Positions 5,483 to 22,913 of a DNA stretch of 32,000 nt are shown one piece after another. The DNA lies in contig CAWGDV010000029.1 in assembly GCA_963821465.1 (NCBI GenBank), positions 392,597-424,596 of the forward strand. The letters are read 5' to 3'. Made by a program: the position numbers and the translations under genes. Source of the DNA: an uncultured Nitrospiraceae bacterium (lineage in GTDB: Bacteria; Nitrospirota; Nitrospiria; Nitrospirales; Nitrospiraceae). The notes under the pieces are model-generated. The model was not told the DNA's origin. It made no database searches and saw only the letters and a list, made by a program, of their open reading frames with translations. Within the stretch, counting starts at the first letter, position 1. Every line of letters begins with the position of its first letter.

Positions 5483-6064
5483 CTATGAGCGGGTTGGTTG
5501 TCCACTGGTCAAGTCGTCGATGGTTAGCAGACTGACGAGCGTGAGTCCTTCGGCTTCAACCTTGTGCCGCCCATCCTGCTCCTTCCGATCTACGATCACC
5601 AAGGCATGGGTCACGGTCAAGCCGGCCTCCCTGGCAGCCGCCACAGCTTTGAGAAGCGAGCCCCCGCTTGTGAGCACATCGTCGACGATCACGGCTCGAT
5701 CCCCTGGTTGAAACGATCCCTCGATAAGTTTTCCAAGGCCATGATCCTTCGCCTGCTTCCTCACCACGAAGGTCCGCCACGTTCGCGTCGGCTGGGCCAC
5801 GAACGCAAAATCCGAGATGCTGGTAGCAATGGAAATCGCTCCGATTTCCAGTCCTCCAAGACAGTCGAATTCAACACCCTTCAATGATTCGTACGCGAGG
5901 TGGGCCACAAGACGGCGCGGTTCCGGGTGGGCCATCAAAGACCGGCAATCGACATAGAAGGGACTGGTCTGACCTGACGCCAGTGTGAATCCTTTAATCG
6001 GGTCCCACTTGAACGATTGGCTCTCATGAAAGGCTTTTGCTAACTCAGCTTTGAGGGGCAGCAT
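5483..6064 (-). CDS. pyrE: orotate phosphoribosyltransferase
   Basis: PRPP-binding motif VIVDDVLTSGGS and FTLASGQTSPFYVDCR are present. The start is ambiguous (ATGs at 6064, 6103, 6142). 6064 was chosen because MLPLKAELAKAF matches typical PyrE N-termini. Confidence 0.85.
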   Translation of the reverse strand: MLPLKAELAKAFHESQSFKWDPIKGFTLASGQTSPFYVDCRSLMAHPEPRRLVAHLAYESLKGVEFDCLGGLEIGAISIATSISDFAFVAQPTRTWRTFVVRKQAKDHGLGKLIEGSFQPGDRAVIVDDVLTSGGSLLKAVAAAREAGLTVTHALVIVDRKEQDGRHKVEAEGLTLVSLLTIDDLTSGQPTRS

Positions 6065-6180
6065 CCTATAGCTCGGGTATTTCTTGGCAACGCGACCGCC
6101 CATTGTATGCTTGATGAGGACCAAAAAGAATCCTCCTTCCATAAATTAATTTTTCTCCCTTGCCGCTTAAATACATTGTG

Positions 6181-6532
6181 CGATCCTGTTCAGGAAAAGC
6201 GTTTCACCTGCTCTGTCAATGTACTCGCGACAAGCTGAAGATCGAACGGCCAGGTGTAACGGAGCTCGACCCTGGGATATTGCGGTCGCAGATGGTCGAA
6301 GATTTCGGGAATCTCAATCTCTGAGTGGGAGCCACCAGGCGTAAACATCGTCGTGGTTAGGGTAATGTGGGTTGCGCCGTTCTTAATCAGCTCCTCCACT
6401 GATTCCTCCAAGGTCGGCGCACAGAACTCGTTGTAGGCGACAGCAAACAGCACCTCCCCCAGGTTGGCTCGCAACTGAGCGGCCACCGCCTTAAGCCCCG
6501 ATCGATAGGGGTCCATTTCCGGTGTCCGAGAA
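6181..6532. repeat. copy A of a roughly 350-bp segmental duplication (partner 8662-9013)
   Basis: Both copies start at the same CGATCCTGTTCAGGAAAA.. boundary. The encoded peptides are about 90% identical. Confidence 0.8.
6190..6516 (-). pseudogene. 5'-truncated duplicate of the cbiX-like chelatase gene
   Basis: The 108 aa match residues 63-169 of the 8671-9180 product. The N-terminal about 60 aa, including the GHG motif, are missing, and the ATG here corresponds to ACG in the full copy. Confidence 0.7.
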
Positions 6533-6669
6533 TCTCATCTGGTACGGTGAGCCGGTGAGCATCTGAGCGACGCGAGAACGCCCCGGCGGACGTTTTCAAG
6601 AGCCTGTTAGAGCGGTCCGGGTCGAGCAAGCTAGGTGTGGAGCCGGCGATCCGGATTGAACGGACGACC

Positions 6670-7893
6670 TCAGGGCTTGTAATCGGTGTGTTCGGAGGGT
6701 TTACCCCCATGTGAGAACTGATGCATGAACGCGATCACCTGCCAGATCTGCTCTTCTGAGAGGTACGACTTCCAGGCCTTCATTGTCGTCTTTGGAACCC
6801 CTTCCGCCACTCGCCAGAACCAGTAGCTGTCTGAGAAACGGCGGATGTTTTTCTGGTCACGAAGCCCTCCCCCACTTTTTACCGGTTGACCGTCCTTATG
6901 GCAACTGCGGCAGCCCTCCGCGGAGTAAATCTGCCTTCCCTCCTCGATGACCTTAGGATCCGTCCACCAGCCAGCCGGCATATGTTTGTCGGCATAATCG
7001 GCCGGAACTGGGGCCAATGGCATTAGTTCCCCAGAGTACGCCATCCCTCCTGAAGGAGTCAGGACAGGATTCTTCGCACACCGGAACCCGCTGTTGAAGT
7101 TCCGGTACGACGGTGACTCATAGCTGGGGGATAACGGTAGGTTGAAGTCCCGGCGCGTGGATCGCAGGTGCTCCGGAGCGAGGTCCCACGAGCCGCCCCG
7201 CAACACTCTGTATTTACCATTTTCCGGCCCCTTCGGGTTCTGCGGCGGGCTGGTCGTGTAATAGTCCGGGTCATACCAGTCGCTCACCCATTCCCAGACA
7301 TTCCCCGCCAGATCATAGACCCCATAGGGGCTTCTGCCGTCTTTCAATTGCCCCACCGGCACCAGCGCGGTATGGTTGTTCCACTTCTCCTTCCCATAGT
7401 TCGCCCGAAGCGGATCGGGGGGTTCATTGCCCCAGGGATAGATCCGCCCATCCGTCCCCCGGGCCGCCTTCTCCCATTCCGCTTCCGTCGGCAGCCGCTT
7501 GCCGGCCCACTCGCAATAGGTGCTCGCATCCGACCAGTCGACATTCACGACCGGGCGCTTCTGATGGGGCGGCTGGTCCATGGTTGTCCACATCGGCGGC
7601 CCGTTCACGCCCCTGGCCTCCAGAAACTTCGCATACTGCCCGACCGTCACTTCATACTTGTCGATGTAATAGGCATCGAGAGAGACCCGATGGACGGGCT
7701 TTTCATCGTCACTACCCTCGTTGCTCCCCATCGTAAATTCCCCCGCCGGCACGAGCACCATCGGTGCCCCATCGTTACCAGTGATCTCCTGCTGCTGCGC
7801 CTGCGCTTGGCCTGCGACCCCAGCGACGAACGTGACAGCCATCAGCACACCGAGCACACTCACCCACCCCGGCCCCCGCTGCCTCATCCCCAT
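6670..7893 (-). CDS. periplasmic FGE-sulfatase (SUMF1/PvdO-type) domain protein fused to a C-terminal mono-haem cytochrome c domain
   Basis: Signal peptide MGMRQRGPGWVSVLGVLMAVTFVAGVAGQAQA. FGE-family motifs are [25 protein letters not shown] and GFRCAK. A CRSCH haem motif lies at 6898-6912 with a downstream Met (TTMKAW). Start at 7893 is preceded by AAGGAGGAG. Confidence 0.85.
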   Translation of the reverse strand: MGMRQRGPGWVSVLGVLMAVTFVAGVAGQAQAQQQEITGNDGAPMVLVPAGEFTMGSNEGSDDEKPVHRVSLDAYYIDKYEVTVGQYAKFLEARGVNGPPMWTTMDQPPHQKRPVVNVDWSDASTYCEWAGKRLPTEAEWEKAARGTDGRIYPWGNEPPDPLRANYGKEKWNNHTALVPVGQLKDGRSPYGVYDLAGNVWEWVSDWYDPDYYTTSPPQNPKGPENGKYRVLRGGSWDLAPEHLRSTRRDFNLPLSPSYESPSYRNFNSGFRCAKNPVLTPSGGMAYSGELMPLAPVPADYADKHMPAGWWTDPKVIEEGRQIYSAEGCRSCHKDGQPVKSGGGLRDQKNIRRFSDSYWFWRVAEGVPKTTMKAWKSYLSEEQIWQVIAFMHQFSHGGKPSEHTDYKP

Positions 7894-8096
7894 GCTTCTC
7901 CTCCTTGCCGGTTCGCCACCGGTCAACCTATCGTAAACCTGCTTGCTGTCACCCTCAACACTGCAAGCTTCCCGCAGCCCGTCCATTCGGTTACACAGTA
8001 CCGTGAGAATATGGCAGAACTGAATGCAGGACTGCGGGATAAAATCCCGCAACATTTCTTCCCGGAGGATCGATTCACGAGATCATCCACGCGGCG

Positions 8097-8309
8097 CTAC
8101 GAATGTCGAGCGTGGTTCCGCTCGGCTCGTTGGAGCAACAGGCTGACGATTCGTACGTTGTTGTCCAGGCCCTGCCATTTCAGAAAATTCATCAGCCCTG
8201 GCTGTTTCGCTTCAAGGCGCTCGACCAGGCGGGTGGCGGCTTGAGACACTTCGACCCCTTGTTCATTCGACAGCGTGACGGTTATGGAGAGGGTTCCCTC
8301 CCGGCGCAT
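8097..8309 (-). CDS. small hypothetical protein (weak ABM/dimeric alpha-beta-barrel-like pattern)
   Basis: 70-aa ORF from the ATG at 8309 (LSITVTLSNEQGVEV..QPGLMNFLKWQGLDNNVRIV). It lies directly downstream of an IS relic. Support is weak. Confidence 0.25.
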   Translation of the reverse strand: MRREGTLSITVTLSNEQGVEVSQAATRLVERLEAKQPGLMNFLKWQGLDNNVRIVSLLLQRAERNHARHS

Positions 8310-8355
8310 GGGCAGATGGCCAGAGTGATGTTCCCCCAATCCCGAGGATACTAGG

Positions 8356-8660
8356 TTAAGCCACCGCCGTCCTCGCTTCGTACTCGGCCGGGGAGTTATA
8401 GCTAAAATTGGGGTGCCGGCCCTTACGATAATAGAACACCTCGATATACTCGAAAATGTCCTGCGTCGTTTCGGCCCGAGTGGCGTAGTGCCGATGGTAC
8501 ACAAACTCGCGCTTGAGTGCCCCAAAGAGACTTTCGACGCAGGCTTGTCCCAGCAGTTGCCTTTTCGGCTCCTGCTCGGAGTGATGCCGTGAGTTTAGTA
8601 TAGTGGGCCATATGGATCGCGACGTTTTCCTGGTGGATGCCCTGTTGTCGATGCTTCACC
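8356..8660 (-). mobile_element. IS3-family transposase (OrfB/rve) C-terminal relic
   Basis: The minus-strand translation gives HGITPSRSRKGNCWDKACVESLFGALKREFVYHRHYATRAETTQDIFEYIEVFYYRKGRHPNFSYNSPAEYE, the hallmark IS3 integrase-core C-terminus. There is an in-frame stop upstream, the 5' part is absent, and no IRs were seen. Confidence 0.75.
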
Positions 8661-8661
8661 A

Positions 8662-9013
8662 CGATCCTGTTCAGGAAAATCGTTTGACCTGCTCTGTCAA
8701 CGTGTTTGCGACAAGATTCAGATCGAACGGCCAGGCGTAACGGAGCTCGATCCCGGGATGCTGTGGCCGCAGATGATCGAGGATTTCAGGAATCTCAACC
8801 TCCGAGTGAGAACCGCCCGGCGTAAACATCGTCGTGGTGACGGTAATGTGGGTTGCGCCCTTCTTAATCAGCTCCTCCACGGATTCCTCCAAGGTCGGCG
8901 CACAGAACTCGTTGTAGGCCACCGCAAAGAGCACCTCTCCCAGGTTGGCTCGCAACTGAGCAGCCACCGCCTCAAGTCCTGATTGATAGGGGTCCGTCTC
9001 CGGCGTCCTCGGC
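8662..9013. repeat. copy B of the roughly 350-bp segmental duplication (partner 6181-6532)
   Basis: Covers the 3' two-thirds of the intact cbiX-like gene. Its left boundary abuts the IS3 relic. Confidence 0.8.
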
Positions 9014-9180
9014 CACTGGCGGATCTTGGTATCCAGCTCGACCTCTTCCGGCGAAGGAGGCATCTTCGCGTTACGCCGCTGAGCCTCCAACCGTTTCAGT
9101 TTCGTGACCAATTCCTGCGGAACACCCTTGGGAATACCGCCGTGACCAACTAGAATCACTCCTCGTGTCGTGGTCGCCAT
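8671..9180 (-). CDS. cbiX: CbiX(S)-type sirohydrochlorin chelatase
   Basis: 169 aa with ILVGHGG near the N-terminus and TPGGSHSEVEIPE, characteristic of small CbiX/SirB chelatases. Confidence 0.8.
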   Translation of the reverse strand: MATTTRGVILVGHGGIPKGVPQELVTKLKRLEAQRRNAKMPPSPEEVELDTKIRQWPRTPETDPYQSGLEAVAAQLRANLGEVLFAVAYNEFCAPTLEESVEELIKKGATHITVTTTMFTPGGSHSEVEIPEILDHLRPQHPGIELRYAWPFDLNLVANTLTEQVKRFS

Positions 9181-9225: not shown

Positions 9226-9591
9226 TCAGCCCGTCGTCGCCTCCAGATATTCCTGTAAATTGGTCTTGCCGTAGCGACTGTCCTGGTACACTTTTCGAAT
9301 AAATCCTGCCACCAAAGCCATCACCTTTTTCACCGCGGGGGTCTTCTCAGGATCTGTGGCCGGCAAGAGACGGACGGTGATCGCCTTCTCGTGAAGCTTG
9401 AGCTGGACAAAGAAGGTGCACGGAACCCCGTTTTCGATCGCAACCGAATCCAGCAGCGCCTCTTTGCCGCTCCGTGCGAGAAAGAACTCCTGGACTTTGA
9501 GGATCTCGCTCCCCGCCCGATGAATGATCGGTGTGAAGGCCTGATATAAGCCCTGCAGATCCCCGGCTTCTTCTATGACAACATGCGGCAT
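9226..9591 (-). CDS. hypothetical protein
   Basis: 121-aa ORF starting 12 nt after the ybgA-like stop and ending 45 nt before cbiX. No recognisable domain. Confidence 0.6.
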   Translation of the reverse strand: MPHVVIEEAGDLQGLYQAFTPIIHRAGSEILKVQEFFLARSGKEALLDSVAIENGVPCTFFVQLKLHEKAITVRLLPATDPEKTPAVKKVMALVAGFIRKVYQDSRYGKTNLQEYLEATTG

Positions 9592-9603
9592 GTTTCTTCC
9601 TTT

Positions 9604-10557
9604 CTACACATGATTGCGCAACATGAGTTCCTTCGGATGCGGATTGAGATAGACCTGATCACGAATGTAGCCGACATCGAAGATCTGGACGTAGTGTTTG
9701 ATCAGCGTCAGAGGGACAACCAAGGGCGTGAGCTCCTGATGATAATCACCGATCACGCCCAATAGCTCGGCTTTCTCGTGAGCGCCGAGCCGCCCCTTGA
9801 AATACCCCAGGATGTGTTGGAGTACGTTCACATGTTTGCGCACCGTCGCTTTCACGGCCAATGCCTTCATGAACAGTTCCCCGTATCGGTGAGCGAGCTC
9901 CTTGGGACGGTGCTGATGCGCCTGACCGACCAGCCGCCCAAGCACCTCGCATTGCTGCGGACTATGGGCCAACAGTAAATATTTATGGACCATGTGGAAC
10001 TGCATCAGAGCCTGCCTCGTGACGCCACTCTGCACGAGATCCTGCCAGCGGCGGTAACAGAAGACTCGCTCGATAAAATTCTCCCTGAGCGTAGGCTCGC
10101 AGAGCCGCCCCTCTTCCTCAACCGGAATCAGCGGAAACTGTTCGATAAAGGCCCGAGCAAATAGTCCGACTCCGTTCCGGCTGGGTATTCCATGCTCATT
10201 GTAGAGACGAACTCGCTCGATCCCGCAGCTCGGCGAGCCTTTCTTAAATACGTACCCGGATAAATCCAAACTCTTAAGTCCCTCGATACGATGCGTGGCC
10301 ATCGTCTCTAGTGCGCGCGTGTGATCTGTCCCACTCTTGATCGTCACGAGCCGTGGATTCTGAAGATCGCCGACCAATCGCATCGCCTCGCGAGGAGTGC
10401 CCAGTCCTGCCTCAACCTCCGGACAGACCGGGACCCACTCCACATAGCGGCCAAACACATCGGTCAGAAAACTGTCCCGCTTATGTCCCCCATCGAACCG
10501 GACTTCGTCTCCGATGAGGCAACGGCTGATCCCAAGACGGAGCGCCACGGTCGTCAT
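9604..10557 (-). CDS. YbgA-like DUF523/DUF1722 protein
   Basis: The N-terminal DUF523 pattern (GISRCLIGDEVRFDGGHK..VPVCPEV) is followed by the DUF1722 helical part (..HYLLLAHSPQ..). The ATG at 10557 overlaps the photolyase stop (ATGA), so the start was moved from 10650. Confidence 0.85.
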   Translation of the reverse strand: MTTVALRLGISRCLIGDEVRFDGGHKRDSFLTDVFGRYVEWVPVCPEVEAGLGTPREAMRLVGDLQNPRLVTIKSGTDHTRALETMATHRIEGLKSLDLSGYVFKKGSPSCGIERVRLYNEHGIPSRNGVGLFARAFIEQFPLIPVEEEGRLCEPTLRENFIERVFCYRRWQDLVQSGVTRQALMQFHMVHKYLLLAHSPQQCEVLGRLVGQAHQHRPKELAHRYGELFMKALAVKATVRKHVNVLQHILGYFKGRLGAHEKAELLGVIGDYHQELTPLVVPLTLIKHYVQIFDVGYIRDQVYLNPHPKELMLRNHV

Positions 10558-12002
10558 CTCGTCACCAGTTGCTTGCCAAGGGCTAAATACTCCTCGCGGG
10601 CTTGCCGGTGATCCACGATGGGCGAAGAATAGTCTGTGCCGATACGGCATCCCGCCAGGGTCTGTTCTTCCTGGGTCATCAGATGCGGCGCATGAATCCG
10701 GTCAGTCGGAACGCCTGCAAGCTCCGGCACATACTGCCGAATGTACGCGCCGTCGGGATCGAACTTCCTGCTCTGCAGCATAGGATTGAAAATTCTGTAC
10801 CCCGGCATGGAGTCCGTCCCGGTCGAGGAGGCCCATTGCCAATTGCCGTTATTGGCCGCAAGGTCGGCATCGACCAGTTGCTGCATGAAATAGCGCTCTC
10901 CGCTTTGCCAATCGATGCGAAGATCTTTGATGAGAAACGACGCCACGACCATCCGCACGCGATTGTGCATCCATCCGGTCTGGTTCAACTGCCGCATGCC
11001 TGCATCCACCAGCGGATAACCGGTTCGTCCGTCACACCAGGCGGCATAGAGCCGATTCCACTCCGCTCCCGCCGGACGGGGTCTCGGCAGTCCGTCCTTG
11101 CTTCGGAACGGACCGGAGACCACTTGTGGAAACGCGGACAAGATTTGTTGGAAAAACTCACGCCAGATCAATTCATCGATCCAGGTGAGCACGTCGCGCC
11201 GCGATACGCGGCCTCCTGCCGCGAACGTGCCTAAGGCCGCATGCACGGCGGTTCGCACCGAGAGAGTTCCGAACCGGAAGTGGGGGGACAGTTTGGATGT
11301 CCCGTCGATCGCGGGGAGATTCCGTCCTTTAACGTACCTGTGAATGGGGCCATTAAGAAACCAGCGAAGCCGTCGCTGCGATTCCTTCTCTCCCGGTTTG
11401 ATGAACAAGGGGGCTGTCTGATAGCCGAGATCTTCCACCGTCGGTAGCGCGATCCGGTGTGACAAAGCACCGGAGCGCTGGACTCGCAGCCTGACGGCGG
11501 AGGGAAGGAGCGGCGGAGTCGCGGCGTGCCACTTGGTCCACCACCGGGCACGATAGGCGCTGTATCGCTGCAAAGGATCTCCCGTCGATCCTCTGATCTC
11601 TTCGGCCTCGAAGACCACATGGTCCTTGTACGTGTGGACCGCCACACCACGGGTCATCAGCGCCTGCTGGACTTTCCGATCTCGCTCGATCGCCGCCGGC
11701 TCGTAATCGCGATTCCAATAGACCGCATCGGCCTTGACGTCCGCGACGAAACGGATCACCTCCTCGATTTGATTCCCCCGGCGCCACTGCAGGGCCAGTC
11801 CTAGAACGGCCAGGGCACCGGCAAGCTCGTCGAGACAGGAGAGCATGAACGTCACGCAGGGCGAGCCAAACTGCCGTGAGCGCAAGAGGGGATCGTCAAA
11901 TACGAAGAGAGGAATGACGTCGTCGCAATTTGCGCAGGCGGCAGTGAGTGCCGGTTGGTCCTGCAGCCGTAGGTCCCGTCTGATCCAGACAACCCCTCTC
12001 AT
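10554..12002 (-). CDS. phr: deoxyribodipyrimidine (CPD) photolyase
   Basis: N-terminus VWIRRDLRLQDQPAL and the FAD-binding region TGYPLVDAGMRQL..GWMHNRVRMVVASFL..DADLAANNGNWQW are present. SD GGAGGA lies upstream. Confidence 0.9.
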   Translation of the reverse strand: MRGVVWIRRDLRLQDQPALTAACANCDDVIPLFVFDDPLLRSRQFGSPCVTFMLSCLDELAGALAVLGLALQWRRGNQIEEVIRFVADVKADAVYWNRDYEPAAIERDRKVQQALMTRGVAVHTYKDHVVFEAEEIRGSTGDPLQRYSAYRARWWTKWHAATPPLLPSAVRLRVQRSGALSHRIALPTVEDLGYQTAPLFIKPGEKESQRRLRWFLNGPIHRYVKGRNLPAIDGTSKLSPHFRFGTLSVRTAVHAALGTFAAGGRVSRRDVLTWIDELIWREFFQQILSAFPQVVSGPFRSKDGLPRPRPAGAEWNRLYAAWCDGRTGYPLVDAGMRQLNQTGWMHNRVRMVVASFLIKDLRIDWQSGERYFMQQLVDADLAANNGNWQWASSTGTDSMPGYRIFNPMLQSRKFDPDGAYIRQYVPELAGVPTDRIHAPHLMTQEEQTLAGCRIGTDYSSPIVDHRQAREEYLALGKQLVTR

Positions 12003-12256: not shown

Positions 12257-12844
12257 TCACTGTATACTTCCCGTGCGCCAATTCCGCAGCCACTTCGATC
12301 GTATAAGCCTGTACCCGAGCCAGGCCACGAGCAGCACTCCTAGCAGTGGGCCTGCCACGGTGCGCACCAGCTTCTGATAATCGGTCATCTGTACCCGCAA
12401 GAGATACTGCGGGCGCCGCATCAGATTCTGCTTCTCCGTCGCAATGATGACCGTATACAGGCCCTCGTCCAGCCGGGCTTCGCCCCGGAGCACGCCGTCT
12501 GGGTGGGTACTCGGACGAATATCTGCCACAATCTCACCTTCTGCCTCATTGCTCCAGTTACCCTTCACTACCCTCATGCCGACCGGCTCGTTGCGCAACT
12601 CTGGGTCCACGAGGTCCACGACCAGGAAGGTGTCGCCATTCTTTGGAATATCTGTGCAGTATTGGTCTTTCAACTGGTATTGCGGCTGATAGGCGCTGAA
12701 ATGCACCACGCGCTCACCGACTTGGCGCAAGCAGGGGTCGTCTTCTCCGCTCGCTGTCCCATGTGCCGCGGCTATGTCGGGGTGGTAGAGTGCTACTACA
12801 AGAATGAGTGCCATAGAGCTTGCCTGTGTGACTTGCCTAATCAT
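12257..12844 (-). CDS. exported hypothetical protein with C-terminal membrane anchor
   Basis: 195-aa ORF with a signal-like N-terminus and a C-terminal TM (GPLLGVLLVAWLGY). Its start overlaps the PDZ gene stop (ATGA at 12841-12844). Confidence 0.6.
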   Translation of the reverse strand: MIRQVTQASSMALILVVALYHPDIAAAHGTASGEDDPCLRQVGERVVHFSAYQPQYQLKDQYCTDIPKNGDTFLVVDLVDPELRNEPVGMRVVKGNWSNEAEGEIVADIRPSTHPDGVLRGEARLDEGLYTVIIATEKQNLMRRPQYLLRVQMTDYQKLVRTVAGPLLGVLLVAWLGYRLIRSKWLRNWRTGSIQ

Positions 12845-14768: not shown

Positions 14769-14894
14769 TCACCTGACTCGAAACCTACCCACTCCGGCCT
14801 GCCGTCGCACCGCCACAGCCGTTCTCCATTGCGCGGCGCATGTCCACCAGCGTAGAGCTACCATTGCCATTACCACCAAGATGATCTGGTCCAT
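14769..14894 (-). CDS. candidate 41-aa membrane mini-protein downstream of amoC
   Basis: The ATG at 14894 is preceded by GAGGAGG at a 5-nt spacing. The product is MDQIILVVMAMVALRWWTCAAQW.. (one TM followed by an Arg-rich tail). It lies in the 280-bp gap between amoC and the zinc-ribbon gene. No homology evidence. Confidence 0.3.
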   Translation of the reverse strand: MDQIILVVMAMVALRWWTCAAQWRTAVAVRRQAGVGRFRVR

Positions 14895-15005
14895 GCTGCC
14901 CTCCTCACCATCTGTCCTCTCGCTAATATCCCAACCGGGTGGTTGGCGGCCCTGCTCTCCGGCATCCGGAGCGCGGGACCAGCCCACCGCAACCAACGGC
15001 CTGAC

Positions 15006-15806
15006 TTAGTACGGGATCACGTGCAAGCAGTCCTTGCTCTCGTTGTTCCAGACCACATCGCACAGGTTCGACATGCGCGCCACAATCTGCGCCGCCACGC
15101 CGCCCGTCCCGCCAAACAACCCGCACCAGCCCAAGGTCACAAAGCCCCAGTGCAACGGCGCGGCAAAGAGTTCATCGACAAACCAGAACGCATGCCCCCA
15201 CTCGTTGAGTCCCACGTTGGGCAGAATCATCATCGGCCCCACGATCGCCCCCACCAAGGGGAACGAGACCGCCTTGCTGAACTGCGGCAGCCGGGTCATG
15301 GCATACAGATAGCTCGCCACGCCACAGGTGATGTACAGCGGGAAGGTGAAGTAGAACGCGATGATATGGCTGGCGGTGAAGCTCGTATCGCGGATGATCA
15401 CCTGATGCCACGACGCGTCCTGCTCCAGGGTGTAGCTCCCCGCCCAATAGACGCCGAACACGTACAGCGCGAGCCACATCATCCAGTAGAAATACCGCTT
15501 GAGTTCGGTCTTGGGATCCACGTTGGCCACGTTGCGATCCCGCGTGCTCCAAATCCATCCCAAGGTCGCGGACGCGAAGATGATGTTGGAAATCACGTTA
15601 AACCGCCACAGGCCCATCCAGACATTCTCGAACTCCGGCGTCATGGAGTCCAAGCCGTGGGAGTAGCCGAAGACGCGCTGAAAGACGACTTCGGAGCCCA
15701 CCGCCGCCAACATGGCAAACCAGCCGATCTTGAGGGGCCTGGAATCGTACCAGAGCGACATATCATAGCCCCGGTCTGACCCTCCCCACGTTGTTGTACT
15801 CGCCAT
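15006..15806 (-). CDS. amoC: ammonia monooxygenase subunit C (orphan copy, no amoA/amoB adjacent)
   Basis: Long collinear matches to AmoC/PmoC: [84 protein letters not shown]. Confidence 0.95.
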
Positions 15807-15824
15807 ACCCTAACCTCCTTGTTA

Positions 15825-15841
15825 AGTGATTGAAAATCACT
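15825..15841. promoter_or_regulatory. perfect 7-3-7 palindrome in the amoC 5' leader
   Basis: On the coding strand AGTGATT-TTC-AATCACT lies 7 nt upstream of the amoC SD. It could be an operator or a leader RNA hairpin. Confidence 0.35.
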
Positions 15842-15930
15842 GCGTATTGAGACCCACTCCCCATCTCATCACTGCCGACAGTCCCGCTCCTTCATTCTTG
15901 TCACCCCCTTTCGTGGCTCACCGAGCAGAC

Positions 15931-15999
15931 AGGCCCCTCCGGGGTGTAGGGAGGGGCCTATCTACCTCAGCGGGAGGCGCCGTGCGGAGTCGCGGCGCC
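15931..15999 (-). terminator. two tandem GC-rich hairpins separating the upstream FGE-like gene from amoC
   Basis: AGGCCCCTCC (15931-40) pairs with GGAGGGGCCT (15950-59), and GGCGCCG (15976-82) pairs with CGGCGCC (15993-99). No U-tract, so terminator function is inferred only. Confidence 0.4.
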
Positions 16000-16075: not shown

Positions 16076-16921
16076 CTACTTCTGTTGGGTCTGGCCCTCG
16101 AGACCCCGTGCACAGCGAAAGCCTGTACCATGGGTCTGCAGCGCGAATCCGCCGCGCCCGCGCGCCGTCGTCGTGATGTCCGAGATCGGGCTATGCCAAG
16201 ACCCACCGCGAATCGATCGGACCACGCCTTTTTTCTCAGGACCCTGCGGATTCCGATCCGGCGCATGCTGGTAGTACTCAGCGTCATACCAATCCTGCAC
16301 CCACTCTCGAGCATTACCGGACAGGTCCTTCACCCCGTAGGGTGAGTCGCCGTCGGGCAAGGACCCGACCGGATGCAATGTGTGCTCCTCCTCCCACTCA
16401 CGGTCAAAGTTCGCCCGCTTCGATGTCGCTGGTTCATTGCCCCAAGGAAAGAGACGACCATCGGTGCCGCGAGCGGCCTTCTCCCATTCCGCTTCCGTCG
16501 GGAGCCGCTTCTTGGCCCAACTGCAATAGGCCTTGGCGTCGTACCAGGTAGTCTGCACGACCGGAAGCTGTTCGATTCCCTTCACGGACAGGAGCGGGCC
16601 TGTGCCATAGGGATTCGGAGGGCTTCGATGGCCCGTGGTCGCAACGAACGCCAGATACCGTGCATTCGTCACTTCGACTTGATCGATCGCAAACTCGTCG
16701 AGGTACACAGATCGCTGCGGCCACTCATCTGCCCGGCCTTTTCCTTCCGGATTCCCCATCAAGAATTCTCCAGCCGGAATCGTCACCATGGGGACCGGGT
16801 CAACCTCTTTGGGAACCGGCGGCGCTGCGACGACAGGCGCGATGGCGACGGCACAGACTAGGGCCATCATCGCAACAATAGTGCTCCAGCGAGTTCCTCT
16901 TCTCCTCAGACCTTGCGTCAT
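16076..16921 (-). CDS. periplasmic FGE-sulfatase (SUMF1/PvdO-type) domain protein
   Basis: Start at 16921 (MTQGLRRRGTRWSTIVAMMALVCAVA, signal peptide) overlaps the upstream stop (ATGA). Motifs [25 protein letters not shown] and GFRCAR are present. Confidence 0.85.
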   Translation of the reverse strand: MTQGLRRRGTRWSTIVAMMALVCAVAIAPVVAAPPVPKEVDPVPMVTIPAGEFLMGNPEGKGRADEWPQRSVYLDEFAIDQVEVTNARYLAFVATTGHRSPPNPYGTGPLLSVKGIEQLPVVQTTWYDAKAYCSWAKKRLPTEAEWEKAARGTDGRLFPWGNEPATSKRANFDREWEEEHTLHPVGSLPDGDSPYGVKDLSGNAREWVQDWYDAEYYQHAPDRNPQGPEKKGVVRSIRGGSWHSPISDITTTARGRGGFALQTHGTGFRCARGLEGQTQQK

Positions 16922-17286
16922 TTCTTCTGCTCCTTGCTCCCCTCGATGGCCTTGGTGGTATGGACTTTCACTTGGCTTACGAGACGCTGCACCTGACGCT
17001 CGTCTCCCCGCTCGGCTGCCTCTTGCGCCTGAGTGATGAGGGTTCTGGCTTCGTGCAGGTGCTGCTCGATTTCGGCCTGCAGGGCAGGGGAAGCGACCGT
17101 TCCGCCTAACGCCGCGCGATGATAGACCTCCCACGCCTGGTCCACATCATGCTCGGCCTCATGCACCGTCTGGGCCTTGTCTGGCTGCGGATGCCGGGCC
17201 GGATCGATGGGATCAGCCTGGAGGGGTGAGGCCCCGAGTAGTGCAAGGAGGACAATCCCTGGAAGGAGAATCTTGCCGTGTATCAT
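16918..17286 (-). CDS. exported all-helical protein (weak Spy/CpxP-like flavour)
   Basis: Signal peptide MIHGKILLPGIVLLALLGASPLQA followed by charged helical sequence (LITQAQEAAERGDERQVQRL). Translationally coupled to the downstream FGE-like gene. Confidence 0.6.
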   Translation of the reverse strand: MIHGKILLPGIVLLALLGASPLQADPIDPARHPQPDKAQTVHEAEHDVDQAWEVYHRAALGGTVASPALQAEIEQHLHEARTLITQAQEAAERGDERQVQRLVSQVKVHTTKAIEGSKEQKK

Positions 17287-17339: not shown

Positions 17340-18398
17340 TCACGGCCGCTTCATCGATTGCTCAATCAACTGTTGAAGCTCCAAGAGTTCCGCATTCTTT
17401 GGATCAATGGCCAGTCCCTTGGTGACGGCCTGTTGGGCCTCCGCAAACCGTTCTCGTCCCATTTCCACCAAGGTAGCGATGTAGCTGTCCCGAATCTGCT
17501 GTTCGATTTCTGGTGGGGCGGTCTTGGCACAGCGTAAGCCCAAGCCCACGCCGTAGCTGTTATTGAGCGGGTGATTCCAGAACCGGTGCGTCGCCTTGAC
17601 CGTGCCTTCTGGCGCGATCCATGATCCGCCACGAATAACCCGCTTTTCACCAACCGTGAGCCGGTCCACATAGGTGCCGGTGCCACCCATCCATACGGGT
17701 TTTGCCGGACCGGTCGGATTCACCATGGGTTCAAGCTTTCCATAGTAGCGGGGGTCATACCAGTCAGCGACCCACTCGAAAACATTGCCGGCCATGTTAT
17801 ACAGACCATAATAACTGGCTCCCTCCGGATAGGAATCCACCGGCATGGTCGCATCGTGATTCTTGCCATAGTTGGCTTTGGCTGAATCGAAGTCATTGCC
17901 CCAGGGGTAGAGGTTGGCCTGGGGACCACGAGCCGCCTTCTCCCATTCCGCCTCCGTCGGAAGGCGTTTACCGCGATATTCACAGAAGGCTGTGGCATCC
18001 TCCCAATTCACTCCGACCACCGGCTGTTGCGGCTTATTCAAGCGGGGATCGTCCCAGTAGGCAGGGGCCGGATGACCTTTCGCCTTGATGAACTGGCCAT
18101 AGTCCTTGTTTGAAACTTCGTACGTATCCATGAGGTATGCATCCAAGAACACCATATGCGCTGGACCTTCGTCACGTAACGCCTCGGCCGACCAGGGTGT
18201 CTTCATCCGTCGGTCGTACGGTGTAGGTTTTTTACCTGAGTCCACAGGCTCTTCCTTATCGACCCCCATCACCGATGCTCCATGCGCGATGTACGCCATG
18301 TCTTTCGGGATCAAGGACTCCTCCGCACGGACTGGTGCAGGCAATAGTATGAATCCCGCCGCCAGTGTCGCGAGCACAATGACTTGTGCCGTATGCAT
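17340..18398 (-). CDS. periplasmic FGE-sulfatase domain protein with C-terminal TPR-like helical tail
   Basis: Start at 18398 (MHTAQVIVLATLAAGFILLPAPVRA) is preceded by GGAGG. Motifs [25 protein letters not shown] and GLRCAK are present. The tail is ..FAEAQQAVTKGLAIDPKNAELLELQQLIE. Confidence 0.85.
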   Translation of the reverse strand: MHTAQVIVLATLAAGFILLPAPVRAEESLIPKDMAYIAHGASVMGVDKEEPVDSGKKPTPYDRRMKTPWSAEALRDEGPAHMVFLDAYLMDTYEVSNKDYGQFIKAKGHPAPAYWDDPRLNKPQQPVVGVNWEDATAFCEYRGKRLPTEAEWEKAARGPQANLYPWGNDFDSAKANYGKNHDATMPVDSYPEGASYYGLYNMAGNVFEWVADWYDPRYYGKLEPMVNPTGPAKPVWMGGTGTYVDRLTVGEKRVIRGGSWIAPEGTVKATHRFWNHPLNNSYGVGLGLRCAKTAPPEIEQQIRDSYIATLVEMGRERFAEAQQAVTKGLAIDPKNAELLELQQLIEQSMKRP

Positions 18399-18473: not shown

Positions 18474-20030
18474 TCAGCGGCGGTGCGGCGCCGCCGTCTG
18501 CCCGTTAGGTATCTTCGCCTTATCGAGGTCTCTCATTTCACGCAACGCTGCTTGTGCGATTCCCCGCAGCATCCCACTAAACACCAACTCGTGCGGCACG
18601 TAGAGCGAATACCAATAGATCTGCCCGATCAGTCCCACCGGATCAAAGATCGCGGTCTGCCGGATCGTCGTCGAAGAGCCGGACCCCGTCACCTCGAACT
18701 CCAGCCATGCCCGCCCGGACAAATGCATCTCGGATTTGAGCCGCAGGCGGCGGTTCGGCTCAATCGCCTCCACGCGAAATGAGTCGACCGTATCACCGAC
18801 GTGAAGGGTCGTGGCAGAAGGCCGTCCACGTCTCAAGCCCACACCCCCTTCGAGCAGGTCGATGAAACCGCGCACCCGCCACAGCCAGTTCCATGCGTAC
18901 CAACCATTGTCACCACCGATTCTCTCAATGCATTTGAAGACGACTTCAGGCGGCGCTTCGACGGTCAACGTCCGCGAATCGACCAGACGCGTGCCGAACC
19001 GCACGCCCCCCCACGACTGCAACTTTCCCGATGAGGAGAGCGCATCGGACCAGCGCGTTGCCGCGAAATGCGTCTCTTCATGGGCTAGAGCTCGGCGAAT
19101 TGCCTCATCGACTCCCATCGGACGTACAGAGAAGGTTGCGAGCGCGGCATTGTCCCGCACCACCGTGACATGGACGATGCTCTCAATAATCGCCCGCCCG
19201 ATGCGAGCGTATAACGGCGTGACCAATCCAAGCCACAGAGCAGACAACCAAGGGGTGAGGACCGGCACGGGGATGATCAGAGGCGCTAGCCCGCGTTGCC
19301 GCCCATACGCACGCATCATATCTGCGTAGGACACTTGGTCCGCACCGCCGACCTCGTATATGCGGTATTTGGAGGTGGGAATCCGAAGCGCTTCCATCAG
19401 GTAGTCCAGCAAGTCGTCGATCGCGATTGGCTGCGCCTTCCCCTTGACCCATCTCGGTGTGAGCATGACCGGCAGGCGCTCCACCAGCGCGCGAATCAGC
19501 TCAAACGAGGCGCTGCCGGAACCAATCACGGCCGATGCGCGAAACTCACACACGGGCAGGCCCGACTGCCGCAAGATATCTCCGACCTCGTGCCGACTGC
19601 GCAGATGTGTCGAGAGTTCCTCTTCGTCGCTGCCCAAGCCTCCCACATAGATGAGGCCCTTGACACCCGCTGCCTTCGCCGCTTCGCTAAAGTTCCGCGC
19701 CGCCTGCCGGTCCGTCTCTTCAAAAGAGCCGGTCGAACTCATGGAGTGAATCATGTAGTAGGCCACGTCGACTCCGCGCAATGCGGAGTCGAGACTCGGT
19801 CGATCAAGGACGTCACCCGCGACAACTTCCGTTGATGGACCGACCTTCGGCTTGAGAATTTCTGGATGCCTGGCCACGCAGCGCAAGCGGTACCCCTGAT
19901 TCTCCAACGACGGCAGGAGGCGCCCGCCAATGTACCCGCTGGCACCTGTGAGAAGAATGAGGGACTTCTCCGGAATTGCCGCTGGGCTCACTGTCGATTT
20001 GCTCGCCACCATGGTTTCAGACGTATTCAT
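18474..20030 (-). CDS. NAD(P)-binding SDR-family protein with C-terminal DUF2867 domain
   Basis: Rossmann motif LLTGASGYIGGRL. The C-terminus GWYAWNWLWRVRGFIDLLEGGVGLRRGR..GRAWLEFEV is characteristic of DUF2867. The ATG at 20030 is preceded by AGGAGG, whereas the GTG at 20048 is not. Confidence 0.85.
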   Translation of the reverse strand: MNTSETMVASKSTVSPAAIPEKSLILLTGASGYIGGRLLPSLENQGYRLRCVARHPEILKPKVGPSTEVVAGDVLDRPSLDSALRGVDVAYYMIHSMSSTGSFEETDRQAARNFSEAAKAAGVKGLIYVGGLGSDEEELSTHLRSRHEVGDILRQSGLPVCEFRASAVIGSGSASFELIRALVERLPVMLTPRWVKGKAQPIAIDDLLDYLMEALRIPTSKYRIYEVGGADQVSYADMMRAYGRQRGLAPLIIPVPVLTPWLSALWLGLVTPLYARIGRAIIESIVHVTVVRDNAALATFSVRPMGVDEAIRRALAHEETHFAATRWSDALSSSGKLQSWGGVRFGTRLVDSRTLTVEAPPEVVFKCIERIGGDNGWYAWNWLWRVRGFIDLLEGGVGLRRGRPSATTLHVGDTVDSFRVEAIEPNRRLRLKSEMHLSGRAWLEFEVTGSGSSTTIRQTAIFDPVGLIGQIYWYSLYVPHELVFSGMLRGIAQAALREMRDLDKAKIPNGQTAAPHRR

Positions 20031-20100: not shown

Positions 20101-21068
20101 CTAGTTCTTCTTCATGCTCTTCTTGATCAGATCGCGTGTCGCGAGGTATTCCTTGTTGCCAGGCTCCGCAGCCAACGCCTTCTCGATGGAGGACATCGCA
20201 TCGGCGTTCTTCTCAGCGCCCATCGCGACTAATGCCTGAATGAACGCATCGCGGCCTGCTTGCATGGCTTCATCGGAAACCGCCTGTGCCGACTTCGCGC
20301 AACGGAACCCGAGGCCGACCCCATAGGAGTTATTCTCCGGCTGATTCCAGAACCGATGGCTCGTATGGAGGGAGGTTTCCGGCGCGAGCCAGGAACCGCC
20401 GCGCAGCACCCTCACCGGGCCTTGATTGGCAAAGTTGTAGCCCTTCTCGGCGCCAGGTGGATTCAAGGCAGGGCTCTCCTTATAGTATTTCAGGTCATAC
20501 CAATCCTCGACCCACTCGAAGACGTTCCCTGCCATGTTATAGACCCCAAACCCGCTGATCCCTTCTGGATAGGAATCCACCGGCGGTGGTACGACCAACA
20601 TTCTGCCCATAGTTGGCTTTCTTCGGGTCGAGTGTATGGCCCCAGGGATAATGGTTGTCGCCTTGCGGACCTTTTGCCGCTCGCTCCCATTCTGCTTCCG
20701 TCGGAAGCCGCTTGCCTTCCCACTTGCAGAACGCGCTTGCATCATTCCAATCTACGCCGACCACCGGCTGATCGGCCTTACTCAGTCGAGGATCATCCCA
20801 ATAGGCCGGGGCCGGGTGACCGCTGGCTTTCATAAATTCTTTGTACCGCTGTGTTCGAGGCTTCAAACTTGTCGATCAGATAGGCATCGAGCACGACCTG
20901 GTGCTTGGCTTCATCTGAATGTTCATTGCTCCCCATGGTGAACTCGCCCTTTGGGATCAGCACCATGTCCTTATCGCTGTTCGGCATGTCCGCCGCTGTT
21001 GCGACAGTGATGGCTCCTGCCATCAATGCCACCCCCAATCCGACCTGAAGCACTCTGTAACTCCTCAT
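20101..21068 (-). pseudogene. FGE-sulfatase domain gene (closest to 17340-18398) broken by two frameshifts
   Basis: Homology runs through three frames (ORFs 20793-21095, 20537-20866, 20101-20745). The shifts lie near 20846-20848 (GCGG where GCG fits) and near 20585-20595. A signal peptide, [25 protein letters not shown] and GFRCAK are all retained. Confidence 0.8.
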
Positions 21069-21126: not shown

Positions 21127-21423
21127 CTATGAGCAGTTCGTTACGCAATTGTTTTGATATATTCTCCCTGCAAGCTGAACTGTGGTCGAATCTTGCCGGA
21201 GCTGCCGATTGTGCAGAATGACGGAATCGACAACCTCACCACACTGCACACAGCGTTTCGCCGCAATCTCAGACTCCCCGATGTTTCCGAGTACATCCAG
21301 GCAGAAGTCCTGAACCATGAGTCCGCCGCATCTGGTGCACGTCGATTCATGTTGGGCTGTGGAAGATGCCGTGTGATTCTCGCTCGGTTCATTGTTCGTT
21401 TTCACCGTCAACGCTCTTGCCAT
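21127..21423 (-). CDS. small C4 zinc-ribbon protein, uncharacterised family (paralog of 14403-14726)
   Basis: CTRCGGLMVQDFCLDVLGNIGESEIAAKRCVQCGEVVDSVILHNR. The ATG at 21423 is preceded by TGGAGGT. It is the first gene of the minus-strand train and is divergent from the MerR/B12 regulator. Confidence 0.7.
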   Translation of the reverse strand: MARALTVKTNNEPSENHTASSTAQHESTCTRCGGLMVQDFCLDVLGNIGESEIAAKRCVQCGEVVDSVILHNRQLRQDSTTVQLAGRIYQNNCVTNCS

Positions 21424-21465
21424 GGCTACCTCCATAGGTTTTTTGTTTAATGTTTGTAATAAGTA

Positions 21466-21537
21466 TGTCCAATGTATAAACCATTTTGTCCAATGTGTCA
21501 AGTGTTATTGTAAAATATATTTGACAAACATTAGACA
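21466..21537. promoter_or_regulatory. three copies of a 10-bp box, ACATT(G/A)GACA, overlapping both divergent promoters (candidate operator)
   Basis: TGTCCAATGT occurs at 21466-21475 and at 21487-21496, giving a 21-bp periodicity. The inverted copy ACATTAGACA lies at 21528-21537, a 9/10 match. Each promoter has a box abutting its -35 hexamer, and one box covers the minus-strand -10. Confidence 0.5.
21473..21501 (-). promoter_or_regulatory. sigma70-like promoter for the zinc-ribbon gene
   Basis: The minus strand reads TTGACA (21501-21496), a 17-nt spacer and TATACA (21478-21473), about 50 nt upstream of the ATG at 21423. Confidence 0.5.
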
Positions 21538-21549
21538 TTACAATACAAT
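21521..21549 (+). promoter_or_regulatory. near-consensus sigma70 promoter for the MerR/B12 regulator gene
   Basis: TTGACA (21521-26), a 17-nt spacer and TACAAT (21544-49). The ATG at 21562 follows with a very short leader and no SD. Confidence 0.55.
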
Positions 21550-21561
21550 GAAAATGTAAAT

Positions 21562-22479
21562 ATGAATATTCATAGAATTCATAGAGTTGCAAAACTCACT
21601 GGCCTCTCAAAAGATGTCATCCGGGTATGGGAGCGCCGGTTTGGACTCTTAAAACCGACTAGAGGAGCCAATCGTTATCGTAATTACTCCGATGAGGATG
21701 TCACGTTGCTGAGGTTCCTGAAGGAGCAGCTGGATGCCGGAAGCTCTATCGGAGAGCTGGCGAAATTAGGGCGTGAGGAGTTGTTGGGGCGAGCACGAGC
21801 CAGCGCGCCGCGAGTGTCCTTCGTCGACAATACATTCAGCAGGCTCCTGCGGGAACTACTGTCCACGCTGAATCCCTTCGATCGTGTGATCTTTGAAAAG
21901 CGTTTGAACGGCGCCGTTGCGGTTGTTCCGTTTGAGGAGGCACTTCACGGGATCTTGCTCCCGCTTCAGGAGCAGGTCGGGCAGTTGTGGCATGAGGGCC
22001 ATGTGAATGTAGCCCTCGAACATTACGTCACGAAGCAAATTCAACAGAAGATTTTCTCGGCCATGAATCAGCTCCCAGTCGCTGAGTTTGGCGCCAAAGT
22101 GATCGTGGCCTGCCCGCCCGGTGAAGAACACGACATTGCTGCATTGGCGGTTGCGTATCGATGTCGTGTTCGTGGCTGCCGAGTCTACTATTTGGGGGCC
22201 AACGTGCCCATTGCCTCGCTGACTAACCTCTGTGATAAGGTGAAGCCGGACTTGACTATCATTTCCTTTCCACTCGCGCTTCCTGAAGCCAACGCGGCGG
22301 CGCTGGTCCAATCCCTCACACATGAGGTGGTTCCGGCCTCGCGTCTCGCCGTCGGAGGACATGGCGCGCTCGCCATGCGTGACCTTTTCGTGAAATCTAA
22401 TATTGAGATCGTGGAAGACTTTGCCGACTTGGATGTCATGCTGGATCGATTCATGCGGCAGTCCTTATCCCGAGGGTAG
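21562..22479 (+). CDS. MerR-family regulator with C-terminal cobalamin-binding domain (CarH/LitR-type candidate photoreceptor)
   Basis: MerR HTH RVAKLTGLSKDVIRVWERRFGLLKPTR..RYRNYSDEDV. Wx9EH motif WHEGHVNVALEH at 21988-22023. B12-binding Rossmann segment VIVACPPGEEHDIAALAVAY with His at 22126-22128. Confidence 0.85.
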   Translation: MNIHRIHRVAKLTGLSKDVIRVWERRFGLLKPTRGANRYRNYSDEDVTLLRFLKEQLDAGSSIGELAKLGREELLGRARASAPRVSFVDNTFSRLLRELLSTLNPFDRVIFEKRLNGAVAVVPFEEALHGILLPLQEQVGQLWHEGHVNVALEHYVTKQIQQKIFSAMNQLPVAEFGAKVIVACPPGEEHDIAALAVAYRCRVRGCRVYYLGANVPIASLTNLCDKVKPDLTIISFPLALPEANAAALVQSLTHEVVPASRLAVGGHGALAMRDLFVKSNIEIVEDFADLDVMLDRFMRQSLSRG

Positions 22480-22496
22480 CAGGAGAGGTCGGTCAG

Positions 22497-22913
22497 ATGA
22501 CGCAATACCCGCTCACCGTATTCTTCGACGGAGCCTGTCCTATTTGCGATCGAGAGATTGCGCTCATGAAACGGTTAGACCGGCGGAGACAATTGGAATT
22601 CTGCGACTTCTCGAACCGGGAATATAATGCGGCATCCAGCGGCTTTACCGCCGCGGATCTAGGCACAGTGATTCACGCCCGCTGGGCGGACGGGTCCGTC
22701 ATCACCGGTGTCGAGGTGTTCCGAGCCATGTGGGAGGCTGTCGGTCTGGGAGTCCTCGCGAGGTTGAGCCGTCTTTCGTTAGTCGACCCACTCGTCTTGA
22801 GAACCTATGCATGGTTCGCACGTAACCGCCTGCGGCTGACCGGTCGTCTGAAGGCATGCACGGGAGACGCCTGTGCCTCACACCCCTCCAAGCCAATTGA
22901 CGTCGTGAGATAG
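22497..22913 (+). CDS. DUF393 / DCC-family thiol-disulfide oxidoreductase-like protein
   Basis: N-terminal FFDGACPICDREIA (DGxCxxC) and a length of 138 aa fit DUF393. It starts 17 nt after the regulator gene. Confidence 0.8.
   Translation: MTQYPLTVFFDGACPICDREIALMKRLDRRRQLEFCDFSNREYNAASSGFTAADLGTVIHARWADGSVITGVEVFRAMWEAVGLGVLARLSRLSLVDPLVLRTYAWFARNRLRLTGRLKACTGDACASHPSKPIDVVR

Follow-up and report, generated by a model that had tools for sequence, protein, structure and literature searches.

The described systems closest to the locus considered here are the class I LitR/CarH regulons of Thermus thermophilus, Myxococcus xanthus, Bacillus megaterium and Streptomyces. The locus lies in a 32,000-nucleotide stretch of DNA from an uncultured Nitrospiraceae bacterium (assembly GCA_963821465.1, contig CAWGDV010000029.1, positions 392,597 to 424,596), the whole of which is referred to below as the window, and consists of a litR gene on the plus strand and, divergent from it, a long train of genes on the minus strand. 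Judged from its sequence, this island is probably switched on in the light through a B12 photoreceptor-type repressor. The window was assigned to clade B of the complete ammonia-oxidising (comammox) Nitrospira, its AmoC being 97-98% identical to that of clade B metagenome-assembled genomes (MAGs) and 76-78% identical to that of clade A, and here the train also includes an orphan copy of amoC and an amoE-like gene, which may provide a light-coupled supply of parts for ammonia monooxygenase (AMO). The locus resembles the class I regulons in the domain order of the regulator, its Wx9EH motif and B12-ligand His, in the divergent promoter of the autoregulated type with repeated operator sites over the -35 and -10 elements, and in a cargo concerned with light damage. 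It differs from them in that the cargo is not carotenoid synthesis but genes for secreted FGE-fold proteins, zinc-ribbon proteins and, in clade B, AMO subunits, and in that the repeats read ACATTRGACA and are spaced at 21-22 bp.

LitR proteins fall into classes, and the class II regulators of Pseudomonas consist of the four-helix bundle only and are thought not to bind B12 (PMC9758184). The phr-rudS operons under LitR control that have been documented in Pseudomonas (PMC11417400), with the order phrB-litR-rudS, likewise place photolyase and RudS, short-chain dehydrogenases and uncharacterised proteins under a LitR-family regulator, but the regulator of the island has both B12 domains, and gene order and the remaining cargo also differ. 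For the orphan amoC the nearest parallel is the singleton amoC3 of Nitrosomonas europaea, which, as cited in PMC7308568 (Berube and Stahl 2012), is a divergent extra copy outside amoCAB that is linked to stress. Both genes are extra copies in a stress context; the island AmoC, however, is about 96% identical to operonic AmoC, and the control proposed for it is by a B12 photoreceptor-type repressor. The N. europaea gene is reportedly under an extracytoplasmic-stress sigma factor. Compared with the amoE/amoD genes that stand beside amoCAB in comammox and other ammonia-oxidising bacteria (AOB), the island copy is stand-alone and is translationally coupled to the gene of a PDZ protein. The FGE-like proteins of the island have the FGE-sulfatase fold in common with the FGE/PvdO/PorK-GldK superfamily but lack the two catalytic cysteines of FGE and, unlike EgtB, have no DinB domain; one of them is a fusion with cytochrome c.

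Photoinhibition is among the main factors that determine where nitrifiers live, and we know of no pure culture of comammox clade B. Nitrospira inopinata is photoinhibited, and AOB need de novo synthesis of AMO after its inactivation by light (PMC9797979). A literature search found no description of a LitR island or of a light-linked amoC in Nitrospira, and no light-sensing or light-repair circuit for any nitrifier. The type of LitR regulon described here is already known, and what is new is the clade B insertion of amoC and amoE; the operator and the periplasmic cargo also set it apart from known systems. The island provides a concrete, genus-wide candidate light circuit for Nitrospira, comprising regulator, operator and regulon, and for clade B it predicts that normal AmoC and AmoE are made from a light-controlled promoter. 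If this is true, B12 photochemistry would be linked to the nitrogen cycle and AmoC would be flagged as the subunit that needs replacement after light damage.

The regulator, its control region and the train

The regulatory centre of the island comprises the following features.
21562-22479, plus strand: litR, a class I LitR/CarH-type regulator with MerR helix-turn-helix (HTH), four-helix bundle and Rossmann B12 domain
22497-22913, plus strand: DUF393/DCC1-like thiol-disulfide oxidoreductase (PF04134, 2e-25)
21424-21561, no strand: divergent control region with two sigma-70-type promoters and four repeats
21127-21423, minus strand: ZnR1, a zinc-ribbon protein of 98 amino acids (aa) with four Cys, the first gene under the LitR-side promoter

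The product of litR matches the MerR HTH families (PF13411, 9.2e-16; PF00376, 1.9e-09) and the four-helix bundle (PF02607, 1.8e-06), with the Rossmann B12 domain (PF02310) at 31.6 bits, just below the 32.1-bit cut-off. An alignment with T. thermophilus CarH (5C8D; E=1.4e-27) covers the whole protein, residues 3-69 forming the HTH part. The Wx9EH motif is present as WHEGHVNVALEH opposite WHRGEIGVAEEH of the Thermus protein, and the loop around His177 of CarH (PPGERHEIGA) is matched by PPGEEHDIAA, in which the lower-axial, B12-ligand His is kept. The regulator therefore has the sequence features of class I, B12-binding LitR/CarH, and the original prediction of a MerR/B12-binding regulator of this type is upheld by domains, Wx9EH motif and ligand His alike. 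The DUF393 gene that was said to adjoin it lies 18 nt downstream of litR, with which it probably shares a transcript; it is also found 3' of litR in five of the related loci that were compared (L014, L022, L073, L078 and L084).

The AT-rich gap of 126 bp between litR and ZnR1 contains two sigma-70-type promoters placed back to back. The plus-strand promoter, facing litR, has TTGACA at 21521-21526 and, after 17 nt, TACAAT at 21544-21549; the minus-strand promoter, facing ZnR1, has TTGACA at 21501-21496 and, again after 17 nt, TATACA at 21478-21473. Four ACATTRGACA repeats are found at 21444-21453 (minus), 21466-21475 (minus), 21487-21496 (minus) and 21528-21537 (plus). A repeat starts directly after each -35 element, the two extra repeats follow in steps of 21-22 bp on the ZnR1 side, and the minus-strand -10 element is also covered. 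This layout is nearly unchanged across clade B, clade A and canonical Nitrospira, and the repeats are the putative LitR operator. A scan of 1.57 Mb of related loci, mostly around amoC copies, found clusters of at least three repeats at 23 loci, only beside litR and with one cluster per litR gene, and none at amoCAB or at other amoC copies. Elsewhere in the window, including before amoC and phr, there were only chance-level single matches and no second operator. In ZnR1, the first gene of the train, the sequence GGAGG precedes the ATG (21423) by 6 nt.

From 21423 down to 5483 all credible genes lie on the minus strand and form one co-directional train; the original prediction of this arrangement, with its divergent promoter at the regulator, was confirmed by open reading frame (ORF), Pfam and NCBIfam analysis, and the gene identities that it gave were supported by Pfam and NCBIfam matches. 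The intergenic spaces are mostly 12-113 bp, and ATGA overlaps join phr to rudS (the coupling of photolyase and ybgA that had been claimed), the PDZ gene to the amoE-like gene next to it, and unk122 to FGE-like 2. A scan of the window detected no hairpin-plus-U terminator in any intergenic gap of the train before the end of pyrE, after which there is a terminator-like site (5401-5381). Larger gaps precede amoC (269 bp), ZnR2 (279 bp) and phr (254 bp). The arrangement of the window recurs in six other long contigs from different samples (98-99% identical assemblies) and is therefore not an accident of assembly.

There are two litR genes on the related clade B contig L084. Both have the divergent promoter with its operator (7405-7542 and 9862-10000), and one of the two LitR promoters drives a gene for a tetrahaem cytochrome of the NapC/NirT type. 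The window has the ortholog of this cytochrome and an FNR-like reductase (25934-26539 and 27124-28179) at a distance of 3-5 kb from litR and with no operator, and this difference points to a rearrangement between the two LitR loci.

The amoC cassette, the hairpin element and the amoE-like gene

The part of the train that contains the AMO-related genes is made up as follows.
15920-15999, minus strand: two-hairpin element without a U-tract, separating FGE-like 2 from the genes that follow
15006-15806, minus strand: orphan amoC (PF04896, 2e-105)
14772-14894, minus strand: small membrane-peptide ORF of 41 aa, sequence MDQIILVVMAMVALRWW...RRQAGVGRFRVR
12841-13329, minus strand: PDZ-only protein, periplasmic and membrane-anchored, overlapping the next gene by ATGA
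12257-12844, minus strand: amoE/amoD-like (PmoD-family) gene; signal peptide, periplasmic domain and C-terminal transmembrane helix

The island AmoC exceeds the cut-offs of both AmoC_BACT (343 bits against 319) and TIGR03078 (337 against 281), and PF04896 spans positions 5-244 of 245. Its motifs RDTSFTASH and NEWGHAFW...PLHWGF, which we take from PmoC/AmoC structures to be the CuC and CuD ligand motifs, are intact. Since neither amoA nor amoB is present in the 32 kb of the window, the gene is an orphan copy, as had been claimed. It sits in a cassette of about 945 bp (about 14909-15848) in which the flanks of amoC resemble canonical amoCAB loci for no more than 42 nt on the upstream side and about 100 nt on the downstream side, so that the cassette carried essentially no upstream sequence with it. 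The cassette is sense-oriented and lies between the hairpin and the 41-aa ORF, which adjoin each other in L085. Operonic copies of AmoC resemble one another about as closely as they resemble the island AmoC, which has no diagnostic residues. A divergent AmoC3-like isoform was accordingly rejected, and the likening of this gene to the stress amoC of Nitrosomonas does not hold in that respect. A leader peptide of 8 codons downstream of the hairpin and a promoter of the sigma-E type ahead of amoC were also considered and dropped, as neither the peptide sequence nor the spacing is conserved. A simple promoter scan found no promoter-like site on the minus strand between 14400 and 16075.

Immediately upstream of the cassette is the hairpin element. 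A hairpin pair had been noted at 15931-15999 and is real, spanning 15920-15999; it consists of a short GGCGCC stem and an extended stem of about 20 bp. The element has no Rfam match, and Rfam and tRNA scans of the window as a whole also gave none. Clade B, clade A and canonical Nitrospira all have it, compensatory changes affect 6 of its 25 pairs, and in every version of the island, those of nitrite oxidisers included, it comes after FGE-like 2. Loci in which it was found include L034, L014, L084, L081, L085, L093, L094 and L078. The 41-aa ORF encodes a hydrophobic helix with an Arg-rich tail and occurs in 15 island loci, always just before ZnR2. In L085, which has no amoC, it follows the hairpin directly, and Nitrospira sp. 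OLB3 has an analogous ORF of 43 aa.

The gene at 12257-12844, which the original prediction labelled unknown, belongs to the AmoE/AmoD (PmoD) family. Its product of 195 aa matches PmoD (6CPD; E=5.7e-6) with Cys and His aligned, has hydrophobic N- and C-termini, and shares 78-83% identity with that of the gene which opens the amoE/D1/D2-like triplet beside canonical amoCAB.

The hairpin also occurs away from the island, between short zinc-ribbon genes and amoE-like genes, at about 10 other loci near extra amoC copies. These modules of short zinc-ribbon gene, hairpin and amoE/PmoD-family gene (L007, L026, L030, L034, L040, L041, L044, L048 and L050) are separated by 5-6 kb from further orphan amoC genes of clade B genomes. 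At a canonical clade B AMO locus (L001, 3973-13035) the order is amoE/D1/D2-like triplet, CopD-cytochrome c-AhpC/TSA fusion, IS1595 transposase, amoC, amoA and amoB, with the insertion sequence (IS) immediately upstream of operonic amoC.

Distribution and history of the island

Among the clade B loci, L006, L009, L012, L017, L020, L057 and L084 have the complete train with amoC at the position that it has in the window, as do the six assemblies of the window's own species. The arrangement is common to about ten species-level clade B genomes, and the concern that the neighbourhood might be a one-off rearrangement is met by this conservation. Short versions in L014 and L022 have the order litR / ZnR1, hairpin, amoC; here a deletion has moved amoC, itself still intact, up to the LitR promoter, from which it is now the second gene. 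In clade A (L073 and L078) the train has no amoC, and an amoC gene is found on the far side of litR-DUF393, at a distance of about 1.5 kb and with an oppositely oriented gene in between.

The same island and operator, with no amo gene in the locus, are present in Nitrospira sp. OLB3, which has been treated as a canonical nitrite oxidiser (10.1101/138586), and in GCA_046351115.1 (Nitrospiraceae), and the island is therefore ancestral to the genus Nitrospira. Its canonical order is litR / ZnR1, FGE, FGE, unk122, FGE, hairpin, small ORF, ZnR2, TIGR01777, DUF4149, PDZ, x, phr, rudS, cbiX, pyrE and, further on, rhodanese. By this comparison SDR-DUF2867, FGE-cytochrome c, amoC and amoE are later additions. 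The earlier view that a module for protecting or repairing AMO is formed by the FGE-like and zinc-ribbon genes was rejected, because OLB3, a nitrite oxidiser that lacks AMO, has the whole island. These genes belong instead to a general, putative light island of Nitrospira, and the secreted FGE-fold and zinc-ribbon proteins are to be regarded as conserved unknowns of that response and not as AMO factors.

Proposed mechanism and alternative explanations

The mechanism that we propose builds on the observed gene content, regulator motifs, operator and promoter architecture with its conservation, synteny and insertion boundaries. In the dark, the LitR/CarH-type repressor loaded with adenosylcobalamin (AdoCbl or AdoB12) would bind the four ACATTRGACA repeats over both promoters and shut off both the litR-DUF393 transcript and the opposite transcript that begins with ZnR1. 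When light photolyses the cofactor, or when B12 runs out, the repressor would leave and the train would be transcribed, giving FGE-fold secreted proteins, two zinc-ribbon proteins, SDR-type oxidoreductases, the PDZ protein, photolyase, RudS and CbiX. Clade B has acquired two sense-oriented insertions just behind the internal hairpin, an amoC cassette that lacks a promoter and a gene of the amoE/PmoD type, which would therefore be expressible solely from island transcription. Illuminated cells would then make extra normal AmoC and AmoE, from which photo-inactivated AMO could be rebuilt, and the spare copies suggest that light-sensitive nitrifiers make spare enzyme parts when illuminated. For the scheme as a whole, a train derepressed by light that in clade B extends to amoC and amoE, we see the chances as evenly poised. 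Its parts differ in strength. Control by LitR of the genes from ZnR1 through FGE-like 2 is well supported by the architecture; light induction of amoC is plausible from the arrangement of the genes; and read-through of the hairpin is the weak link. B12 and light sensing, repression and a role in AMO repair are what we infer from these features. A bolder extension, to which we give little credence, is a light-triggered AMO repair cycle in clade B, comparable to the turnover of D1 in photosystem II, in which the B12 photoreceptor would derepress fresh AmoC and AmoE together with the PDZ protein, and the zinc-ribbon proteins would gate the supply of AMO parts via the hairpin. Repeatedly, a zinc-ribbon gene immediately precedes this hairpin and an amoC or amoE gene comes after it.

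Several observations weigh against light-derepression of the whole train. The B12 loop of LitR (E/DxHxxG) has Ala in place of the canonical Gly, and the NCBIfam equivalog model for CarH (NF052513) gives 126 bits, far under the cut-off of 400, so that LitR is a family relative and not an equivalog of characterised CarH. The operator of Thermus and Myxococcus CarH consists of 11-bp direct repeats, and the ACATTRGACA repeats differ from its consensus both in sequence and in spacing. The strongly conserved hairpin immediately upstream of amoC could terminate or process the transcript, and amoC and the genes downstream of it, photolyase included, might therefore be separately controlled; the gaps of 269, 279 and 254 bp are also roomy enough that they could conceal promoters missed by a simple scan. 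The island amoC is absent from some clade B genomes, L081/82 having amoE without amoC and L085 neither, and in clade A amoC is merely adjacent and not co-transcribed. Finally, clade B genomes carry 4-6 copies of amoC, and some chance adjacency is thus to be expected.

The hairpin is central to a reading in which the train is two units, ZnR1 to FGE-like 2 being under LitR with a transcript that is ended or processed at the hairpin, and the block from amoC to cbiX being served by its own promoter or by a secondary regulator, possibly ZnR1. Control of amoC would then be indirect, or not by light. The genus-wide conservation of the hairpin with compensatory changes indicates that it has a function at this boundary, the gap between FGE-like 2 and ZnR2 is already about 330 bp in OLB3, and elsewhere, too, the hairpin is found immediately after ZnR genes. 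Several LitR/CarH systems put a secondary regulator directly under the light promoter, and by analogy with the LitS, LdrP or CarQRS relays ZnR1 could act in this way. We nevertheless think a division of this kind rather unlikely: the hairpin has no U-tract, the stretch between 14400 and 16075 yielded no promoter-like site on the minus strand, and the downstream block contains the canonical light-induced genes, those for photolyase and RudS, in a window that has no second operator.

It could also be that amoC and amoE are no more than passengers, since amoC and amoE-like genes are often duplicated and shuffled and the slot behind the hairpin may be a recombination hot spot. Among the 85 amoC copies in the compared loci 53 are neither operonic nor in the island, the content of the slot varies (amoC, amoE, both or neither), and the same hairpin flanks ZnR-amoE modules elsewhere; IS and duplication scars are found in and around the window, and the island AmoC has no distinguishing residues. 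Neutral hitch-hiking of this sort is nonetheless improbable in our estimation, given that about ten species-level genomes have kept the insertion intact, in sense and in one and the same place, that a clade A amoC has independently come close to a litR island, and that the deletion in L014 and L022 moved amoC behind the LitR promoter with the gene kept intact. Far less probable again is that the island is primarily a sensor of cobalamin status. CarH-type repressors require AdoCbl for DNA binding, and because a repressor without AdoCbl cannot bind, the island could be a B12-starvation regulon with CbiX as a feedback arm and light as a secondary signal. The CbiX chelatase is indeed conserved in the train and some Nitrospira are B12 auxotrophs (PMC8115632), but the cargo is dominated by functions in light and UV damage (photolyase and RudS) and the Wx9EH photochemistry motif is conserved. 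The B12-status and light readings are not mutually exclusive, and derepression by light remains the reading that we prefer.

The FGE-like and zinc-ribbon proteins

The secreted and zinc-ribbon proteins of the train other than ZnR1 are encoded as follows.
20101-21051, minus strand: FGE-like paralog 4, secreted, with two compensating frameshifts in the window
17340-18398, minus strand: FGE-like paralog 3, secreted, with a C-terminal TPR-like tail (PF03781, 3e-46)
16918-17286, minus strand: secreted protein of 122 aa with no assigned family (unk122), ATGA-coupled to FGE-like 2
16076-16921, minus strand: FGE-like paralog 2, secreted (PF03781), both catalytic, Cu-binding Cys absent
14403-14726, minus strand: ZnR2, second zinc-ribbon paralog, GTG start, with orthologs in OLB3 and other Nitrospira
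6670-7893, minus strand: secreted fusion of an FGE-like domain with a mono-haem cytochrome c, restricted to clade B islands

Four periplasmic FGE-like paralogs had been proposed, and all four match PF03781 (2e-62, 7e-54, 3e-46 and 6e-18) and have leader sequences. When FGE-like 2 was aligned with Streptomyces coelicolor FGE (6MUJ), its segment RGGSW--HSP-ISD fell opposite RGGSYLCHDSYCNRY and the catalytic Cu(I)-binding Cys pair was absent. FGE-like 3, whose OLB3 ortholog is 76% identical, reads RGGSWIAPEG, again without the Cys pair, and no Cys occurs in the RGGSW segment of any of the four. By sequence these are FGE-fold proteins without the catalytic cysteines and not FGE proper; a literature search on Nitrospira and formylglycine returned nothing relevant. 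FGE-like 4 is read in three frames in the window but is intact (316 aa) in four of the six near-identical assemblies (L086, L088, L090 and L091, at 98-99% identity), so that the break may be a long-read homopolymer error or a strain-specific pseudogene. The unk122 gene is present in all island versions, at 65% identity in OLB3.

The claim of two copies of a zinc-ribbon protein is also correct, ZnR2 being 45% identical to ZnR1. Their core is CxRCGGLM...RCxxCGExxDxVIxxNR, with the invariant set CxRCGGLM...RCxxCGExxD.VIL.NR. No Pfam or NCBIfam family rose above noise for these proteins, and an exhaustive profile search gathered 1730 clusters at E<=1e-3, which makes this a large, unnamed family. 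The AlphaFold2 (AF2) model of ZnR1 has a zinc ribbon and a C-terminal helix, at low confidence (pLDDT 55).

Other genes of the train and its flanks

The remaining features of the train are listed in the order of transcription.
18474-20030, minus strand: SDR/NmrA-like domain fused to DUF2867, absent from the canonical-Nitrospira island
13443-14357, minus strand: TIGR01777 (YfcH-type) SDR oxidoreductase with DUF1731 (329 bits against a cut-off of 207)
10554-12002, minus strand: CPD photolyase, phr (Pfam/NCBIfam)
9604-10557, minus strand: RudS (YbgA: TudS with DUF1722), ATGA-coupled to phr
9226-9591, minus strand: cytoplasmic protein of 121 aa, no family; sporadic, found among other islands in L009 only
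8671-9180, minus strand: small CbiX-type chelatase, kept at the same position in OLB3
8056-8670, minus strand: rearrangement scar with the C-terminal tail of an IS3-type transposase, translation ending GALKREFVYHRHYATRAETTQDIFEYIEVFYYRKGRHPNFSYNSPAEYE
6190-6516, minus strand: truncated duplicate (fragment) of CbiX (6181-6527 against 8662-9008, 88% identity)
5483-6142, minus strand: pyrE, orotate phosphoribosyltransferase (TIGR00336, 137 bits against a cut-off of 107), the conserved last gene of the train

RudS combines a TudS desulfidase domain (PF04463, 1.8e-39) with DUF1722 (PF08349, 3.4e-41), a domain make-up that identifies it as a putative tRNA 4-thiouridine desulfidase. YbgA has been described as RudS, an enzyme of this activity, and photolyase and RudS are documented companions of LitR (PMC11417400), in agreement with their listing as light-regulon members in the original prediction. 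A literature search for DUF2867 with photolyase in light regulons returned nothing relevant. The pyrE gene is probably a housekeeping gene. The TIGR01777 oxidoreductase also scores 336 bits against the NCBIfam model 'thylakoid membrane protein ThyD' (cut-off 400).

Several rearrangement scars were noted. The 3' half of cbiX is directly duplicated at 88% identity, and an IS3-family relic lies between cbiX and FGE-cytochrome c; both are missing in L006 and L057, where cbiX abuts the next gene without the IS3 scar. Beyond the end of the train, 3995-4141 and 4341-4517 repeat 5152-5297 and 5305-5481 (79-86% identity) as a mosaic scar. The beginning of a 170-aa ORF from a cytochrome-c cluster (24742-24833) recurs in inverted orientation at 4140-4231 with 96% identity, and the island as a whole lies between these two copies. 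Upstream of the NapC/NirT region, the non-coding stretch 25329-25537 contains a direct repeat with an offset of about 75 bp (80% over 134 bp).

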